Below, piece after piece: positions 55,180 to 64,000 of a DNA stretch of 64,000 bases. Numbering within the stretch: the first letter of the stretch is position 1; each line of letters begins with the position of its first letter. The notes under the pieces are model-generated. The model searched no databases and had not been told where the DNA came from. It worked only from the letters and a program-made list of their open reading frames with translations. The stretch lies in NCBI RefSeq assembly GCF_003334255.1, contig NZ_QOWU01000014.1; one strand, 5' to 3'. The stretch is from Escherichia coli (GTDB lineage: Bacteria; Pseudomonadota; Gammaproteobacteria; Enterobacterales; Enterobacteriaceae). Both the position numbers and the translations under genes were made by a program.

Positions 55180-55375
55180 GAGAGGGCTGGGGTGAGGCTT
55201 TTCCCTCACCCAAACCCTCTCCGTGAGGAGAGGGGCAGCGCCGGATGCGGCGTAAGCGCCTTATCCGGCCTACAAGAACGTGCAAATTCAACAAATTGTG
55301 ATGCATCCTGTAGGCCTGATAAGCGTAGCGCATCAGGCAATTAACCCCACCTTCTCCATGTGGAGAGGGTGGGAT
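55180..55375. repeat. composite REP cluster in the mtlA-mtlD spacer
   Basis: two inverted REP units (GCCGGATGCGGCGTAAGCGCCTTATCCGGCCTACA and TGTAGGCCTGATAAGCGTAGCGCATCAGGC) flanked by GGTGAGG/CCCTCTCC palindromes. Confidence 0.8.
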
Positions 55376-57613: not shown

Positions 57614-57829
57614 AGATATTTTCTTACGGCGTTCACCTGATGTGATCTACAGCATGTTATGCCTTCGTCATACAATCGTTATGTAACTAAGCAACTCATC
57701 ACCTCTAAAAATTATTCTTTGGTGTTATGGCGAGAATCGCGAACCCGGATTATTGTCAAAATATCAGCCTGACTCCCTTCTGGCTGCCAGCCCAAAAACA
57801 ACACTGATAAACGTGAATCCGAGGCAGAT

Positions 57830-58192
57830 ATGTTTCTAAACTATTTCGCGTTGGGAGTGCTGATCTTCGTCTTTCTGGTGATTTTTTATGGAATCATCGC
57901 GATACATGACATCCCTTATCTGATTGCCAAAAAGCGCAACCATCCCCATGCCGACGCTATTCATACGGCGGGCTGGGTGAGCCTGTTTACTCTGCATGTT
58001 ATCTGGCCGTTTCTGTGGATCTGGGCGACGCTCTATCAACCGGAGCGTGGCTGGGGTATGCAGTCACATGTTGCGTCGCAGGAGAAAGCGACTGACCCGG
58101 AAATCGCCGCACTTTCTGACCGAATTTCCCGGCTGGAGCATCAACTCGCCGCCGAGAAAAAGACTGACTATTCCACGTTCCCGGAGATCTAA
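57830..58192 (+). CDS. yibI: DUF3302 small inner membrane protein
   Basis: 120 aa with two N-terminal TM helices; divergent from mtlA. Confidence 0.85.
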
Positions 58193-58194
58193 TT

Positions 58195-59331
58195 ATGGAT
58201 CTATTGATTGTTTTAACTTACGTGGCGCTGGCGTGGGCGGTCTTTAAAATCTTCCGCATTCCGGTAAATCAGTGGACGCTGGCGACGGCGGCGCTGGGAG
58301 GCGTGTTTCTGGTGAGTGGTTTGATTTTGTTGATGAACTACAACCACCCTTACACTTTTACCGCGCAAAAGGCAGTGATAGCGATCCCTATCACGCCACA
58401 GGTGACGGGAATTGTTACTGAAGTCACTGACAAGAATAATCAGCTTATTCAAAAGGGCGAGGTGCTTTTTAAGCTCGACCCGGTTCGTTACCAGGCGCGA
58501 GTTGACAGACTTCAGGCTGACCTGATGACGGCGACGCATAATATAAAGACGCTGCGTGCGCAGCTCACTGAAGCGCAGGCCAACACCACCCAGGTTTCAG
58601 CGGAGCGCGACCGTCTGTTTAAAAATTATCAACGTTACTTGAAAGGCAGCCAGGCGGCGGTGAATCCGTTCTCGGAACGTGACATCGACGATGCGCGGCA
58701 AAATTTCCTCGCGCAGGATGCGCTGGTGAAAGGCTCGGTGGCGGAGCAGGCGCAGATCCAGAGCCAGCTCGACAGTATGGTTAACGGCGAGCAATCGCAG
58801 ATTGTGAGCTTAAGAGCGCAACTTACTGAAGCAAAATATAACCTTGAGCAGACTGTCATTCGCGCGCCGAGCAATGGCTACGTTACTCAGGTACTGATCC
58901 GCCCAGGTACATACGCAGCTGCCTTGCCGCTGCGTCCGGTGATGGTCTTCATCCCCGAGCAAAAACGGCAAATTGTCGCCCAATTTCGGCAAAACTCGCT
59001 GTTACGTCTGAAACCCGGCGATGATGCGGAAGTGGTGTTTAACGCGCTACCTGGGCAGGTGTTTCACGGCAAACTGACTAGTATTTTACCTGTCGTGCTA
59101 GGCGGTTCTTATCAGGCGCAGGGGGTATTGCAATCATTAACGGTCGTGCCCGGCACGGACGGTGTGCTGGGAACCATTGAACTGGACCCTAACGATGATA
59201 TCGATGCCTTACCCGACGGCATCTACGCCCAGGTGGCGGTTTACTCCGACCATTTCAGCCATGTTTCGGTGATGCGGAAAGTGCTGCTAAGAATGACCAG
59301 CTGGATGCATTATCTTTATTTGGATCATTGA
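58195..59331 (+). CDS. yibH: HlyD-family membrane fusion protein
   Basis: 378 aa with N-terminal TM and coiled-coil; 3 bp after yibI. Confidence 0.85.
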
Positions 59332-59790
59332 GGGGGAGGGGGGAGATTATGGAACTTTGCTCCTTGTAAGGACTAATTATTTTTGCATATTACTTCATTA
59401 GCTGCGATGATTTTTCTTTAATATTCATTATGTTAATAAGTTCTGGATGAGTGTGCTCTCATTGGATTTTTTATCCGTCTTGTTCTGCCGCAGGATGAGA
59501 CTATACATCGTCGAGATCGCAATGATGATATGAGTTGTTCCTCCTGCGACGGCTCTAATCAAAAAAGAGCAGGAGTGCTTTTCCATCTATTGCGATGATG
59601 GCTTTATTATCTGAAGGATGACAGTCACATTTAAAAAATATTTAATCTATAGATCACAATGTAGGGTCATGGAATATATGTATACAACTATTTTCTTCTT
59701 CACTTTTAATTATCGTATTCATTATAAAACTAAGTTAAAAAAACTCCTGGAGAGTGAGTTATTAATATATTTTTAAATAAAATTAAGTTA

Positions 59791-60228
59791 TCATTCATCG
59801 ATGCACTTTATAGAATCATCAATGGCCATAATAGTACTATTAACTCTCAATTTTATATTTTTATCATCACTACAAATATTAACTGAATTTATATCAATGA
59901 TTTTTTTATTCTTATCTTTTATTTTATTTACTGTTTCAATGCAATCAGCGGCAAGTTGGAGTGGATTTAGATTTTTCAGATATGGTCTTATGATCTTTCC
60001 CTTACTTAATAAATAGCATGTATAGGATTCGGAAAGTCCAGCATCTATTTTGTACCTCATTATATTAGATAAGGATGTGAGAAATTCCTTGTTATCATTC
60101 GCAGCCATATATGCCAGTCCGAGTTCAGCCTCTGCGGCCTTACAGGCAAAATAGCTTAGTGAACACGCTTTTCGTCCCTCTTTAGTACTGGCTGATATTA
60201 GTGCCCATAATATTGCTTTGTCTGCCAA
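59791..60228 (-). CDS. hypothetical protein, possible immunity gene of the decayed rhs module
   Basis: 145-aa AT-rich ORF immediately downstream of the rhs remnant; TTG start in track, first in-frame ATG is 40 codons in; weak Sel1-like segment KAAEAELGLAYMAAND. Confidence 0.35.
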   Translation of the reverse strand: MADKAILWALISASTKEGRKACSLSYFACKAAEAELGLAYMAANDNKEFLTSLSNIMRYKIDAGLSESYTCYLLSKGKIIRPYLKNLNPLQLAADCIETVNKIKDKNKKIIDINSVNICSDDKNIKLRVNSTIMAIDDSIKCIDE

Positions 60229-60316
60229 ATCTAACTCTCTCTGAAATTGTCTTGCAGTAACTGCACTCGCAGAAATAGAGAAAAAAATACAATTGTTAAT
60301 AATCTTGCCATATTTT

Positions 60317-60930
60317 TTAGTCCGTAACTGTTAATGTGCTATCTGGCTCTGAAAATATTAACTCATTTAATTTTTGCATGTCATTAGATAAACCAGTTAT
60401 ACAACCCTCGGAACAGAATCGAGGTCCTAAAGACGGACCAAAAGCGTTTAAACAACTATGTATTGAAAATCCATTGCGATTATAAGTTCCTGTATTAACT
60501 GACGGTACTAATCGTATGCCGTCAGGTTTTCTATTGCTTGCTCCCGGGTCATTAACATTCCAACTCCATAGGCCTTGAGGTATTGGCCATCTATTTATAA
60601 ATGTGTACAACGGGGATTATTTTTACATTGCATATTATTACCAGAAGCGACTGGAATACTAAGCACATCATAAAAATTATCATCACATGGTATATCTGAA
60701 ACACACGAAAGCATACCTAAAGTTATGCTGTATAAACAGGTGGCTAATCCCAAGGGGATCGATTCCAGAAATCGGGTTCAACGGATACTGATAAAAATTC
60801 CACCTACCTTCCAGCCCAATCGGAGCCTGAGTGTTATACCGCCCCTGCTGCGGTTAATGTTACCGATAATAGTTATAGTACAGCCCTGATTCATCATCAT
60901 ACTACTGCTGCGGCAGTCTGATGAACTATT
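60317..60930 (-). pseudogene. decayed orphan rhs C-terminal fragment (frameshifted)
   Basis: 60750-60930 encodes a degenerate Rhs core end ([32 protein letters not shown]) that hits a stop near 60600, while a 97-aa ORF 60317-60610 continues in another frame. Confidence 0.55.
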
Positions 60931-60934
60931 GCTT

Positions 60935-61396
60935 TTACGGATTCTCCTTATTCTTCCTTCTATCCATTCGCTTTAGCTTTTTGAGCTCTTGAAGTTTGCT
61001 CTTTGCATCAATATTACCGTTATTTACAGCGAATTCCATCCAATAAATAGCTCTATTCAAATTATAATATTCTGATAATGTTGGATTTGTATCTGATAAA
61101 AAGACCCCATAATTAAACTGCGCTGTAACATTCCCCTGAGATGCTGATCTTTCCAAGAATCGCAATTGTTTGTAAATGTTATTTTTAGTAAAGCAGTAAT
61201 ATTGATATAGTCGAAATGATGCCTCTGAATCACCATGTTGTGATTTATACTTCAGTTTCATCAACTTTTCTTCACTTAAATCATAGGTCATTGCTGTAGA
61301 CCCCATCATACTTTCGTTTTGTTTTATTTTCACATCAGCACCATGCAATTGACAAATAAAAGAGAAATAAAAAAATAGTAACAAGCATGCTTTCAT
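60935..61396 (-). CDS. yibG: Sel1-repeat protein with N-terminal signal peptide (YibG-like), candidate immunity protein
   Basis: 153 aa; hydrophobic N-terminus MKACLLLFFYFSFICQLHG then Sel1-like repeat SASQGNVTAQFNYGVFL; directly downstream of orphan rhs tip. Confidence 0.75.
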   Translation of the reverse strand: MKACLLLFFYFSFICQLHGADVKIKQNESMMGSTAMTYDLSEEKLMKLKYKSQHGDSEASFRLYQYYCFTKNNIYKQLRFLERSASQGNVTAQFNYGVFLSDTNPTLSEYYNLNRAIYWMEFAVNNGNIDAKSKLQELKKLKRMDRRKNKENP

Positions 61397-61407
61397 ACAT
61401 CTACAAC

Positions 61408-62346
61408 CTATCTTATATCACTGGGTTTTTCTGGCGTACCTTGCATATTAGAAATGGGGTGCCCAGATGGCCCATATGTTATCCAATTACCAAGGTCTTT
61501 TGTTGTTATAGCCATTAGATCCTTATTTGAATTAAGGTTCGTTGGTGCTGTTAGCACTGTATCCATTTTTAACTTACCATTAGTTCCTCGCCCCCACCAC
61601 GTCCATAGCGTGTCAGGTCCTATTACATTTGTATGTAACTCTTTAGCTAATTGGCTAGCAAATGAATTTTGTCCTTTACCTGTATTACAAGAAAATAACC
61701 AAACTGTCATCCCATCTTTATAATTCCCATCAAATTTAATTAGATATGCTAGATCTTTAGCTGTCATGATACTGCGCGTTGCGGATTCAATAGATGTGGG
61801 GGTACCATGCCCCCCGATTGTGAAAACGCCTGGGATATTAATCTCATCAGCTACAGAATGGATAAGATCACTTTCGGGGTATAAATTTATATCAACCAAA
61901 CCTTGCGGATCTACATTTATGACCGGATTCAACGGATACTGATAAAAATTCCATCCCCCCTTCAGTCCAATCGGATCCTGAGTGATATACCGCCCCAGCA
62001 GCGGGTCATAATAGCGGTGGCGGTTGTAATACAGGCCGGACTCCTCATCATACTGCTGACCCGGCAGGCGAATGAGCTGCTGCAGATGATGCGGGTTCTC
62101 ATCACTCAGCAGGTTGCCCCATTCATCATATTCTGCGCACCACGCTGTTGCCCCTTCCGTGCTGATGAGCGCCAGCGGCAGGCCGCGATGGTCGCAGTGG
62201 TACAGGTGGATTTTTCGCGCCGGCGTGTACACCGGGTCCATCTGGTTTTGCATCTGCTCCACGGTCAGGCCGCACGATGCCAGCCAGCGGCGGCTTTCCT
62301 CACTCACCCGGTCAGCCAGGATTTCACTTTCCAGCCGGTCGAGCAT
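61408..62346 (-). CDS. orphan Rhs C-terminal toxin module (core end plus variable CT)
   Basis: starts inside Rhs core homology (MLDRLES...[26 protein letters not shown]...[39 protein letters not shown]) followed by about 160 aa of unrelated sequence; ATG at third codon of track ORF. Confidence 0.75.
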
Positions 62347-62393
62347 CTGCACCGTGCCGGCGGGAATCCCCCACTGTGCATAGGCAACTCACG

Positions 62394-63236
62394 CTATGAA
62401 CGCTTCAGCTTATCAATAGCGGAAGTTATAATTTCATTGTCATCAAACTTGTACAACATAGTATCTAAAACAGGAAGTAGCGTTTTATCACCTAATTCAC
62501 CCGCAGCTTCAATGATATCATCATAAACAGTATTTTTTTTTAACTCATCGCATAAAACAGATAAAACCCTTTTATCTTTTCTGTAGGAAAGTCCGATTAT
62601 TGCTTCAATACGGACTTCCTCATTTTTATCCTGAAGCATCTCCACAAAACAATCCCTAATATCACTATTATCATATTTATTGATATTTATTGCAAATGCG
62701 GCCCAGTTTCTGACATCTCCATTTGGATCTTTTAACAGATTAATCAATAGTGGAATTGTTGCTTTATCATTGATAACAGAAATAGCAAATGCTGTAGCAC
62801 GTCTGACATTAGTCGATTTATCAAAAGCAGTAATTTGAGATTGTTCTACTATTTTAGGTGAATAAATTGGGTTTTTCTTGCATCGCTGAGCTGTTGACTC
62901 GATTGCCGTAGCTCGAACGCAAGCGCTCTTATCATTCAATGCCATATTGTTCAAAATATTAAAAACATTATCTTCGCATTTTTTGCAAATTTTTATTTGC
63001 CCGAGTATAAATGCTCCGATATCTCTACGGATATAATTTTTATCAGAGCAGAACTCAATTGCCAATCTAACAGCGTCTTGCCCACCTCTTAACTGTAATA
63101 CTCTGGCAGATGAAATCCTTTTCAAGGAATTGTGATCATCAAGTAAGCGAAATAATTCATCATCATTTAGTTTCTTACATTGATTATATAAACCATACTC
63201 TTTACTTGCCTTTCTTTTCTGGTATGTATTTGACAT
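62394..63236 (-). CDS. yibA: HEAT-repeat protein YibA, candidate immunity protein for the main Rhs tip
   Basis: 280 aa from internal ATG (MSNTYQKRKASKEYGLYNQ); directly downstream of main rhs stop. Confidence 0.8.
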   Translation of the reverse strand: MSNTYQKRKASKEYGLYNQCKKLNDDELFRLLDDHNSLKRISSARVLQLRGGQDAVRLAIEFCSDKNYIRRDIGAFILGQIKICKKCEDNVFNILNNMALNDKSACVRATAIESTAQRCKKNPIYSPKIVEQSQITAFDKSTNVRRATAFAISVINDKATIPLLINLLKDPNGDVRNWAAFAININKYDNSDIRDCFVEMLQDKNEEVRIEAIIGLSYRKDKRVLSVLCDELKKNTVYDDIIEAAGELGDKTLLPVLDTMLYKFDDNEIITSAIDKLKRS

Positions 63237-63256
63237 TGCAGGAACCTCCACAAGGG

Positions 63257-64000
63257 CTATCTTTTTTTATCGTTTGACTGTCTGGAGTGACGACAATTCC
63301 AGGCTTTCTGTGTGCTTTTTGCATCTTTAGCACTAATATCACCACAATCAATTAGTTCCTGAAGTACGTCACATCTGTCGGGTTTTTTCCCATCACTCCA
63401 GAATCTGTCATTTATTATGTCATTGACACGATCAGTTATCCCTGTGTCTGCAACATTTCCACGAGAAGCTATCATTGTTATATCTAATGCTAGTCCCGGA
63501 TTATTCAATATTAGAGAGTCAAATATTCTTTGTGATGCTGTATCGTTCCACCATTTTGTCAATGCTTTTGCAGCATTATCATCTGCTTGCTGCTGTGCAG
63601 GGCTTTTGGGCCATGGAATTGGCAAGGGGAATGGTCTAGGAAAAACTTCTAACCCCAGAGGATCTGTATTCGTAACTGGATTCAACGGATACTGATAAAA
63701 ATTCCATCCCCCCTTCAGCCCAATCGGATCCTGAGTGATATACCGCCCCTGCAGCGGGTCATAATAGCGGTGGCGGTTGTAATACAGGCCGGACTCCTCA
63801 TCATACTGCTGCCCCGGCAGGCGGATAAGCTGCTGCAGCTGATGCGGGTTCTCTTCATTCAGCAGGTTGCCCCATTCATCGTATTCTGCGCACCATTCTG
63901 TTGTCCCTTCCTTGCTGATAAGGGCCAGCGGCAGGCCGCGATGGTCGCAGTGGTACAGGTGGATTTTTCGCGCCGGCGTGTACACCGGGTCCATCTGGTT
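63257..64000 (-). CDS. rhsA: 3' end of main rhs gene (core end plus C-terminal toxin tip), partial at window edge
   Basis: frame open to window end; encodes ...[26 protein letters not shown]...[39 protein letters not shown] then about 130-aa variable tail; gene symbol by synteny only. Confidence 0.75.

Follow-up and report, generated by a model that had tools for sequence, protein, structure and literature searches.

The 64,000-nt stretch of Escherichia coli DNA analysed here (hereafter, the window) carries the rhsA locus on its minus strand, in the state known from strain K-12, and the direct repeats at its edge belong to the well-known layout of that locus. Two tip/immunity modules have very probably been displaced downstream of the main gene at this K-12-type locus, and the repeat of the rhsA core 3′ end is, with similar probability, both the footprint of tip displacement and a sequence that can still serve as a substrate for recombination. 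Chimeric main/orphan genes of the kind that such recombination would generate were found at the same chromosomal site in other strains.

Organization of the rhsA locus

Rhs elements were first defined at the rhsA locus. In the window, the 3′ end of rhsA is followed by yibA, the orphan yibJ, yibG, yibS/yibW, and yibV, all on the minus strand (Table 1), and the annotation of K-12 MG1655 gives the order rhsA-yibA-yibJ-yibG-yibS-yibW-yibV-yibU. The locus is flanked by yibF-selA at one end and yibH-yibI-mtlA at the other, as in K-12, and the MG1655 element corresponds to the one described here in location, gene order, repeats, and flanks, with 8 differences across positions 57800–64000 (6.2 kb). 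However, yibJ of K-12 is truncated by a nonsense change at window position 61653 and is hence annotated as a pseudogene, whereas the orphan ORF is intact here (314 aa; its GTG start, at 62352, lies at the margin of the homologous region), and a T-tract in yibV near 59900 differs by 1 nt. Only the last 245 codons of rhsA lie in the window (positions 1147–1261 of the RHS_core model). Beyond the window edge we used E. coli WG5 (L001), which has 3 differences from the window in 59300–64000 (99.9% identity) and whose complete rhsA gene (4,134 nt) encodes a DUF6531 domain, more than 10 RHS repeats, and the RHS domain.

Table 1. Positions of the features of the rhsA locus in the window, with the basis of each assignment
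Feature	Position	Strand	Basis or remark
Main rhsA core 3′ end, repeat copy 1	63660..64000 (cut by the window edge; reaches 64130-equivalent)	-	Alignment; RHS_core and Rhs_assc_core models; Pfam RHS domain
Main toxin tip, Ntox34	63257..63659 (including stop codon)	-	Ntox34 E = 2.9e-43; follows the PxxxxDPxGL motif
yibA, HEAT-repeat protein, immunity partner of the RhsA tip	62394..63236	-	PRK09687 E = 3e-140; K-12 annotation; published work
17-nt spacer, yibA stop codon to 5′ edge of the orphan core fragment	62377..62393	.	Cassette boundary
Orphan (yibJ) core fragment, repeat copy 2	61907..62376	-	Encodes the final ~155 residues of the core, with the RHS domain
Orphan toxin tip, 162 aa, intact	61408..61906	-	Predicted clan-CD cysteine protease fold
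yibG, Sel1/TPR-like, putative immunity gene for the orphan tip	60935..61396	-	Partner role by position only
yibS, third, decayed core fragment	60683..60934 (alignable repeat 60773-60927)	-	Alignment; K-12 annotation
yibW, frameshifted third tip	60317..60681	-	Weak YkuD/Tlde1-like signal (HS..SEGCI)
yibV, Imm57 immunity gene of the third module	59791..60311	-	Imm57 E = 2.7e-48; frameshifted per PGAP

The locus has the features that we looked for in an enterobacterial rhs main/orphan array of toxins and immunity genes. The PxxxxDPxGL motif closes the core in both the main and the orphan copies, and a polymorphic C-terminal domain, a toxin in the main gene and presumably one in the orphan, is then followed directly by a small gene of known (yibA) or presumed (yibG) immunity function. 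In terms of base composition, the G+C content falls from 62% in the core and 55–59% in the repeat copies to 39–40% in the tips (40% in the main tip), 34% in yibA, and 32% in yibG; the step is evident within the orphan gene itself, with 58.5% in the core fragment versus 39% in the tip. The main pair consists of the Ntox34 tip and yibA, and according to the summary of Vlazny and Hill (1995) given in Poole 2011 (PMC3150448), yibA neutralises the toxicity of the RhsA C-terminus, the two forming an experimentally supported toxin/antidote pair.

The orphan tip had no Pfam match. It contains an invariant His30/Cys70 pair and is predicted to adopt a clan-CD cysteine protease fold of the C80 or DUF4347-like type. 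Its neighbour yibG is presumably the cognate immunity gene, and the pair would then be a toxin with its antidote; a search of the literature found no functional studies of yibG/yibJ.

Extent and identity of the direct repeat

Within the window, the local alignment of 61907–62247 with 63660–64000 comprises 341 gap-free columns with 320 matches (93.8%; blastn E = 4e-150). Six of the 21 mismatches fall in the first 18 nt, and the high-identity part begins at exactly 61925 and 63678, in agreement with an earlier sequence-only reading of the window, which had described a segment at 63678 recurring near 61925 with scattered substitutions and continuing into the window edge. When the WG5 sequence was added, the full repeat was found to reach 62376 in the orphan copy and the 64130-equivalent in the main copy, giving 471 columns with 444 matches (94.3%); the single gap, of 1 nt, lies close to the orphan 5′ edge, and none occurs from 61907 to about 62350. 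The term "near-identical" used in that reading is a little strong for 94%, but the values of 93.8–94.3% stay clear of the divergence (well under 90% identity) at which it would have regarded the copies as unable to support homologous recombination.

Both copies are direct and in the same reading frame, with a repeat unit of 1,753 bp, and between them lie the spacer, yibA, and the main tip, as had been proposed from the sequence. The orphan copy lacks the N-terminal and repeat regions of the gene, and its homology stops 17 nt past the yibA stop codon. The repeat contains exact blocks of 183 nt (62171–62353), 61 nt (61998–62058), and 41 nt (61925–61965). At 471 bp, it is long enough and similar enough for homologous recombination and lies in frame, and its 94% identity together with these exact blocks makes the copies a substrate for recombination of the RecA type. 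Mismatch repair would be expected to reduce recombination strongly at this identity. Because the copies are direct, in frame, and gap-free, a crossover between them would remove the Ntox34 tip and yibA and leave the yibJ tip joined in frame to rhsA.

A degenerate third copy, expected near 60770–60930, was located at 60773–60927 in yibS. Its identity is 78% with the orphan copy and, in a gapped alignment, about 76% with the main copy; it has several in-frame stops and retains a PISGIDPLG motif followed by a break in the frame. We rejected this copy as a useful partner for switching in view of its 76–78% identity, indels, and stops, and of the frameshifts in its tip and its Imm57 gene; recombination with it would yield only a pseudogene.

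Fused alleles in other E. coli genomes

A synthetic deletion junction, consisting of the orphan tip, the repeat, and the core upstream of the repeat, was searched for in 5,426 complete E. coli genomes, with at least 80% coverage in one place required of a match (a window-type genome reaches 69% at most). The junction was contiguous in 928 of these genomes, and 2,480 had the window-type layout with Ntox34 and yibA. Thus, the product foreseen in the sequence-only reading, in which the main tip and yibA are deleted and the orphan tip is fused to rhsA, is found as an allele of other E. coli. All six fused loci that were inspected had an rhs gene with the yibJ tip, directly followed by yibG and without yibA. 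Five were located between yibF-selA and yibH-mtlA, the sixth having a rearranged upstream flank, and four contained an intact fused gene of 4,230 nt. A third allele at the same site, with a DUF4329 tip, yhhH, and then yibA, was seen in one genome (L013).

To place the crossovers, the six fused loci were typed at 15 sites in 61966–62170 that separate the two repeat copies, and three classes were distinguished. Class 1 (L002) was orphan-type throughout, including 61966 T and 61997 A, both of which are absent from class 2, and 1 of 569 sites in its upstream core departed from the window-type main copy; this pattern places the crossover within the exact block of 183 nt. Class 3 (ETEC H10407, ML35, and H3) had main-type states at 61966 and above and orphan-type states below 61925, with 0–1 differences in the 569 upstream sites, indicating a crossover in the 41-nt exact block. 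This chimera was matched over its full length at 99.7% or more in the 30 genomes listed, and 69 records fell in the band of at least 99%. Class 2 (L003 and L004) was orphan-type at 62059–62170, had 7–8 upstream differences, and is plausibly, judging from these substitutions, the undisplaced ancestor. The class 3 pattern is that of the rhsA main copy at 15 of 15 sites, whereas the paralogues rhsB, rhsC, and ybfO are mixed, including at 62128–62170; gene conversion from any of these paralogues was accordingly rejected as the source of class 3. Mosaics with at least two crossover intervals show that recombination within the repeat has occurred in nature, although most of the 928 genomes may retain the fused state as an ancestral one, the clear recombinants being the mosaic classes only.

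Origin of the repeat and of the fused alleles

In the scenario that we favour, an ancestral rhsA would have ended in the yibJ tip, and a 1,753-bp cassette composed of a core 3′ fragment, the Ntox34 tip, and yibA would have recombined into the rhsA core, displacing the former core end and tip downstream together with yibG. A later crossover between the repeats would remove the cassette, which formally leaves as a circle, and yield an RhsA of 1,409 aa, in frame, with the yibJ tip and with yibG immediately downstream. Such events are presumably intrachromosomal and may still occur in this strain.

It is improbable that the repeat is merely the passive scar of one ancient displacement, its copies no longer recombining to a meaningful extent and the fused alleles all being ancestral. 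The class 2 loci do have the appearance of ancestors in both their SNPs and their upstream cores, and the identity of 98.7–98.8% to the junction query in most of the matches listed suggests that theirs is the commonest fused type; moreover, the window-type layout is stable across 2,480 genomes, and the third module illustrates how displaced tips decay in place. Nevertheless, class 3 follows the main copy at every typed site and then changes to the orphan allele within 41 nt of exact identity, and class 1 shares its two orphan-specific substitutions with the window. Furthermore, the window type cannot descend from both class 2 and class 3: these two are 13 substitutions apart within 112 nt, and clustering of this kind is a signature of recombination, not of point mutation. 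A different route to the mosaics, allelic replacement between strains by transduction or conjugation in place of intrachromosomal deletion, seems unlikely to us. Rhs cassettes do move across loci and strains, as illustrated by the DUF4329–yhhH–yibA allele and by the rhsC locus of strain MT102, which holds Ntox34 and DUF4329 orphan modules; the paralogous cores are themselves SNP mosaics, and the flanks of the class 3 strains are 98.9–99.9%, not 100%, identical to the reference. Deletion on a single chromosome, however, takes one event and no donor, and class 3 closely matches the window-type main copy over the typed sites and the upstream core alike. Replacement between strains would still require crossovers in the same repeat, so that the part played by the repeat would stay the same and only the route would differ.

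It is also conceivable, though rather unlikely, that the core 3′ fragment has been kept for expression, supplying an internal promoter and a start codon to an orphan pair that acts inside the cell like a toxin–antitoxin module. The intact orphan ORF with its GTG start fits this view, and there is a precedent in Salmonella, in which a P2 promoter in the shared core 3′ region drives transcription of both tips, main and orphan, which form type II toxin–antitoxin modules, P2-like sequences having been reported in E. coli as well (PMC7043789). Against it, K-12 tolerates the nonsense mutation in yibJ, and neither repeat copy has a sigma-70 consensus site; the promoter and terminator scan of 60300–64000 from which the latter result comes gave 8 sigma-70 sites, compared with 11.5 in shuffled sequence, and is uninformative on orphan expression. 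Such a function would in any case be compatible with the recombination role of the repeat and would not replace it.

A circular record resembling a cassette

One ambiguous database record, NZ_CP054971.1, is a circle of 2,294 bp filed as a Klebsiella pneumoniae plasmid. It corresponds to exactly one repeat unit of the sister allele, with a hybrid core fragment, the DUF4329 tip, yhhH, yibA, and the spacer. It was the sole circle candidate found, and the circle itself is hypothetical. A search for the main tip with yibA on plasmids returned this record and mislabelled chromosomes, and no bona fide plasmid. We consider it very unlikely that the record is a real excised Rhs tip cassette, that is, the circular intermediate that Jackson et al. 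proposed without having observed it, in another genus. In that case, the window repeats would act as attachment sites for a small element whose movement depends on RecA only, beyond their role as a substrate for deletion.

Comparison with related systems

The closest parallel is the pair STM0291/STM0292 of Salmonella Typhimurium LT2 (Koskiniemi et al. 2014), in which, as here, a main rhs gene and its immunity gene precede an orphan that consists of a core fragment and another tip and has an immunity gene of its own. In LT2, the segment common to the main and the orphan gene measures 522 bp with 95% identity, compared with 471 bp and 94% here, and recombination between the two genes yields a chimeric rhs through which the orphan toxin is deployed (PMC3967940); these experiments uphold the statement in the sequence-only reading that toxin switching by such recombination is a known Rhs mechanism. 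The switch in LT2 was observed experimentally, after a duplication of the locus that keeps the main immunity gene, whereas here it is known by genome comparison alone. A simple deletion loses yibA, and the Salmonella work argues that a prior duplication is required. A synthetic tandem-duplication junction gave 70 records with at least 80% coverage; the best 12 of these 70 were two-piece, permuted, non-colinear joins, and no true tandem-duplication junction was found among them, so that they lend stable duplications no support, although transient duplications would be absent from finished assemblies.

The rhs genes of LT2 lie within a type VI secretion system (T6SS) island, whereas there is no vgrG or PAAR gene at the present locus. 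The upstream neighbour of rhsA is the divergently transcribed yibF, not vgrG, so that the locus does not have the setting of a T6SS effector, and no PAAR domain was found in RhsA residues 1–1200. K-12 strains are generally regarded as having no T6SS. Delivery of either toxin to other cells, that of the switched protein included, is putative in this lineage.

The displacement model of Jackson et al. 2009 (PMC2935791), in which circles of core and tip are excised and inserted by homologous recombination, describes dissociated tips in arrays, where every tip has a core fragment belonging to the clade of the upstream gene, as well as GC-rich cores, AT-rich tips, and tips that are attached or dissociated depending on the strain, all of which apply here. 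However, clade I loci of E. coli generally have no dissociated tips in that study, whereas this rhsA locus has two. Similarly, in the cdiA-CT/cdiI orphans of CDI systems and in Neisseria mafB and pilE/pilS, C-terminal cassettes that lack promoters and share a short conserved upstream segment lie downstream of an expressed gene, and this shared segment, as in rhsA, permits replacement by homologous recombination. The protein families are unrelated, and pilE/pilS undergoes high-frequency, non-reciprocal gene conversion, whereas the products observed here are deletions.

Implications

The gene order, the displacement of tips, and the switching mechanism have already been published, and no new kind of biology is involved; the genome counts, crossover classes, and yibJ tip fold were computed in this analysis. 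What is added are the numbers of alleles at one chromosomal site (Ntox34/yibA in 2,480 and the fused yibJ tip in 928 of 5,426 genomes), the placement of natural crossovers in exact blocks of 183 and 41 nt, and a predicted clan-CD cysteine protease fold for the yibJ tip. The repeat explains how the toxin can be changed and one immunity gene lost in a single recombination step, and a change of toxin at rhsA bears on kin discrimination and on competition among strains in the gut.

Identity and gene order of the rhsA locus

Gene content was taken from an ORF listing and family searches, and all listed parts of the Rhs region lie on the minus strand; mtlR-mtlD-mtlA and yibI-yibH are upstream on the map. 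Positions 59300–64000 were found in 2,480 complete E. coli genomes (megablast, at least 80% coverage). Across 57800–64000, only eight positions differ between the window and K-12 MG1655, in which the matching stretch is annotated as rhsA, yibA, yibJ (pseudogene), yibG, yibS, yibW, yibV, and yibU. This match and the K-12 gene order therefore identify the region as the classical rhsA element. At 61653, the window has G and MG1655 has A, which creates a stop codon, so that yibJ is a pseudogene in K-12 and the orphan is intact in the window strain. A 1-nt difference in a T tract near 59900 shifts the reading frame of yibV (Imm57), and position 62250 is listed alongside these two as a site of difference from K-12. 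The mtlA-mtlD intergenic region (55214–55370) contains an imperfect inverted repeat pair, with 21-nt arms 115 nt apart, that looks like REP-type palindromic elements.

Features of the rhsA locus and of the corresponding allele in E. coli MLI107
Feature	Position	Strand	Source
rhs gene 3′ end	63257 to window edge	-	ORF listing, family search
HEAT-repeat gene	62394–63236	-	ORF listing, family search
314-aa ORF beginning with Rhs core sequence	61408–62352	-	ORF listing, family search
Sel1/TPR-like gene	60935–61396	-	ORF listing, family search
Decayed Rhs fragment, then Imm57 gene	3′ of Sel1/TPR-like gene	-	ORF listing, family search
Unit comparable to NZ_CP054971.1	L013 7001–9748		E. coli MLI107

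The direct repeat

Pairwise alignment of the repeat copies, as proposed in the sequence-only reading, matched 61907–62247 with 63660–64000 over 341 gap-free nt at 93.8% identity (blastn E = 4e-150). Six of the 21 mismatches lie in the first 18 nt, where variable positions of the PxxxxDPxGL motif are encoded, so the near-identical stretch starts at 61925 and 63678, exactly where that reading had placed it, and the window ends inside the repeat, which that reading had followed to the edge. Read past the edge in E. coli WG5 (three differences in 4.7 kb), the repeat ends at 62376 and the equivalent of 64130, 17 nt past the yibA stop codon. The full repeat spans 471 columns at 94.3% identity, with a single 1-nt gap within the last 25 nt, exact blocks of 183, 61, 41, and 30 nt, and a period of 1,753 bp. 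The degenerate third copy reported near 60770–60930 was located at 60773–60927, with 76–78% identity and several stop codons. The G+C content was 55–62% in the core fragments vs 32–40% in the tips and immunity genes.

Toxin tips and immunity genes

The complete RhsA protein of WG5 contains DUF6531, RHS repeats, and the RHS domain, and no PAAR domain was found in residues 1–1200. The main tip is Ntox34 (E = 2.9e-43), and in the summary of the work of Vlazny and Hill contained in PMC3150448, the RhsA C-terminal region and yibA behave as toxin and antidote. The orphan (yibJ) tip had no Pfam or NCBIfam match. An exhaustive HMMER search identified 562 relatives, many at the C-termini of proteins of 1,300–2,400 amino acids, and the domain is repeated, in up to five copies, within some giant proteins (3,000–6,800 amino acids). 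His30, Gly31, and Cys70 were invariant in an alignment of 29 relatives. The yibJ tip (61408–61896) belongs to this widespread family and has a predicted clan-CD protease fold (C80/DUF4347/Tce1-like), Tce1 itself being a putative His/Cys protease (PMC13323088); we infer that the tip is a putative toxin and yibG its putative immunity gene. The third module is broken, with stops in the core fragment, a frameshifted tip weakly similar to YkuD/Tlde1, and a frameshifted Imm57 gene. No T6SS gene is present at the rhsA locus, and any export of RhsA in this lineage is putative.

Fused alleles in other genomes

Recombination between the repeats had been proposed to delete yibA and the main tip and to fuse the orphan tip onto the main rhs gene. 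A synthetic deletion product, comprising the orphan tip (61500–61906), the repeat, and 400 nt of core upstream of the repeat, was covered to at least 80% in one place in 928 of 5,426 genomes; in a window-type genome, any single place covers at most 69% of it. The predicted arrangement was present in all six loci fetched from other genomes: an rhs gene ends in the yibJ tip, yibG follows 12 nt further on, and yibA and the Ntox34 tip are absent. Five of these loci sit between yibF-selA and yibH-yibI-mtlA. In the sixth (E. coli 2011C-4251, L003 5909–12911), rpmE-priA replaces yibF-selA as the upstream flank, which points to a large rearrangement of the chromosome that ends in the rhs gene. Four of the six fused genes are intact at 4,230 nt and exceed the window-type gene by 96 nt, matching the prediction from tip length. 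The other two (L002 and L004) have internal core deletions of 542 and 1,118 nt relative to WG5, and both are annotated as frameshifted.

Predicted crossover intervals and probable origin of the fused alleles

Fifteen positions at 61966–62170 at which the main and orphan copies differ divided the fused loci into three classes. Class 1 (L002) carries the orphan state at each of the 15 sites, among them T at 61966 and A at 61997, elsewhere seen in the window's orphan copy, and only one of 569 sites in its upstream core departs from the window-type main copy. A crossover within the 183-nt exact block would produce this pattern. In class 2 (2011C-4251 and L004), the sites at 62059–62170 are orphan-type, and those at 61966 and 61997 are main-type; 7–8 of 569 sites differ in the upstream core, and this class may well represent the ancestor before displacement. 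Class 3 (ETEC H10407, H3, and ML35) has the main-copy state from 61966 upward and the orphan state from 61924 downward, and 0–1 of 569 upstream sites differ, the pattern that a crossover within the 41-nt exact block at 61925–61965 would produce. A class-3 chimeric query matched over its full length at 99.7–99.8% identity in all 30 genomes listed, and 69 records fell in the band of 99% identity or higher. The class-3 allele agrees with the rhsA main copy at 15 of 15 sites; the core ends of K-12 rhsB, rhsC, and ybfO are mixed.

Between classes 2 and 3, 13 substitutions fall within 112 nt of a gene that is elsewhere at least 98% conserved. The two classes cannot both be ancestral to the window type, so at least one of them arose by recombination in the rhsA repeat. 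The simplest route to the recombinant class is intrachromosomal deletion; replacement between strains, which would also yield recombinant fused alleles, is a less likely route. The observation made in the sequence-only reading is correct and its interpretation is sound, the comparative evidence supporting it at the rhsA locus itself; in the window strain, toxin switching is putative.

Relation to published models

The locus, its architecture, and the mechanism have all been established previously. Jackson et al. (PMC2935791) proposed that tips are displaced when circular core-tip cassettes insert by homologous recombination, and that a dissociated core fragment can recombine with the main core to release such circles. 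The structure of rhsA is exactly that which, in their model, single-crossover insertion of a 1,753-bp circle would leave, because the repeat is as long as the core fragment and the 5′ edge of the orphan abuts the cassette end. For a Salmonella repeat of 522 bp and 95% identity, Koskiniemi et al. (PMC3967940) demonstrated the reverse reaction by experiment, and argued that the switch follows duplication and that the main immunity gene is thus retained. No stable duplication junction was found for rhsA among the best matches to a synthetic duplication junction. Starsta et al. (PMC7043789) report that the main and orphan tips are expressed as TA-like modules from promoters within the 3′ part of the core that they share. 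In rhsA, a sigma-70 consensus scan of 60300–64000 placed no promoter within the two repeat copies and gave 8 sites overall vs 11.5 in shuffled sequence, a result that speaks neither for nor against such promoters.

A third allele and cassettes at other rhs loci

When a plasmid database was searched with the yibA/main-tip unit, a circular record of 2,294 bp deposited as Klebsiella pneumoniae (NZ_CP054971.1) was recovered; its full length (1–2294) corresponds exactly to a single main-to-orphan unit of the repeat in a third rhsA allele. It contains, in order, a core fragment, a DUF4329 (RhsB-type) tip, yhhH, the last ~50 nt of the Ntox34 tip, yibA, and a spacer. Its core fragment is a hybrid, orphan-type at the 5′ end and main-type at the 3′ end, as expected of an excised circle and equally of an assembly-graph loop; the record may be an excised Rhs cassette circle, such a loop, or a contaminant. 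The chromosomal form occurs between yibF and yibH in E. coli MLI107 (L013 3741–10737) with a period of 2,295 bp, at the same site as window 60935–64000, and comprises a DUF4329 main tip, yhhH, yibA, the yibJ orphan, and yibG. In this allele yibA is orphaned, its Ntox34 toxin being nearly all gone. At least 80% of the third-allele unit is covered in 915 genomes, a count that does not imply an rhsA location.

After rhsC, E. coli MT102 (L012 5578–9697) carries an Ntox34 orphan that retains a long core fragment, and a yibA-like gene, followed by a DUF4329 orphan, yhhH, and a HEAT-repeat fragment, whereas MG1655 has ybfO-ybfC at the corresponding position, a difference showing that tip cassettes move from one rhs locus to another. 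At the K-12 rhsB locus (L009 5836–6237), 3′ of yhhH, the yrhC pseudogene region resembles the end of the Ntox34 tip and the 5′ part of yibA, a homology that links the rhsA and rhsB cassettes in their history.
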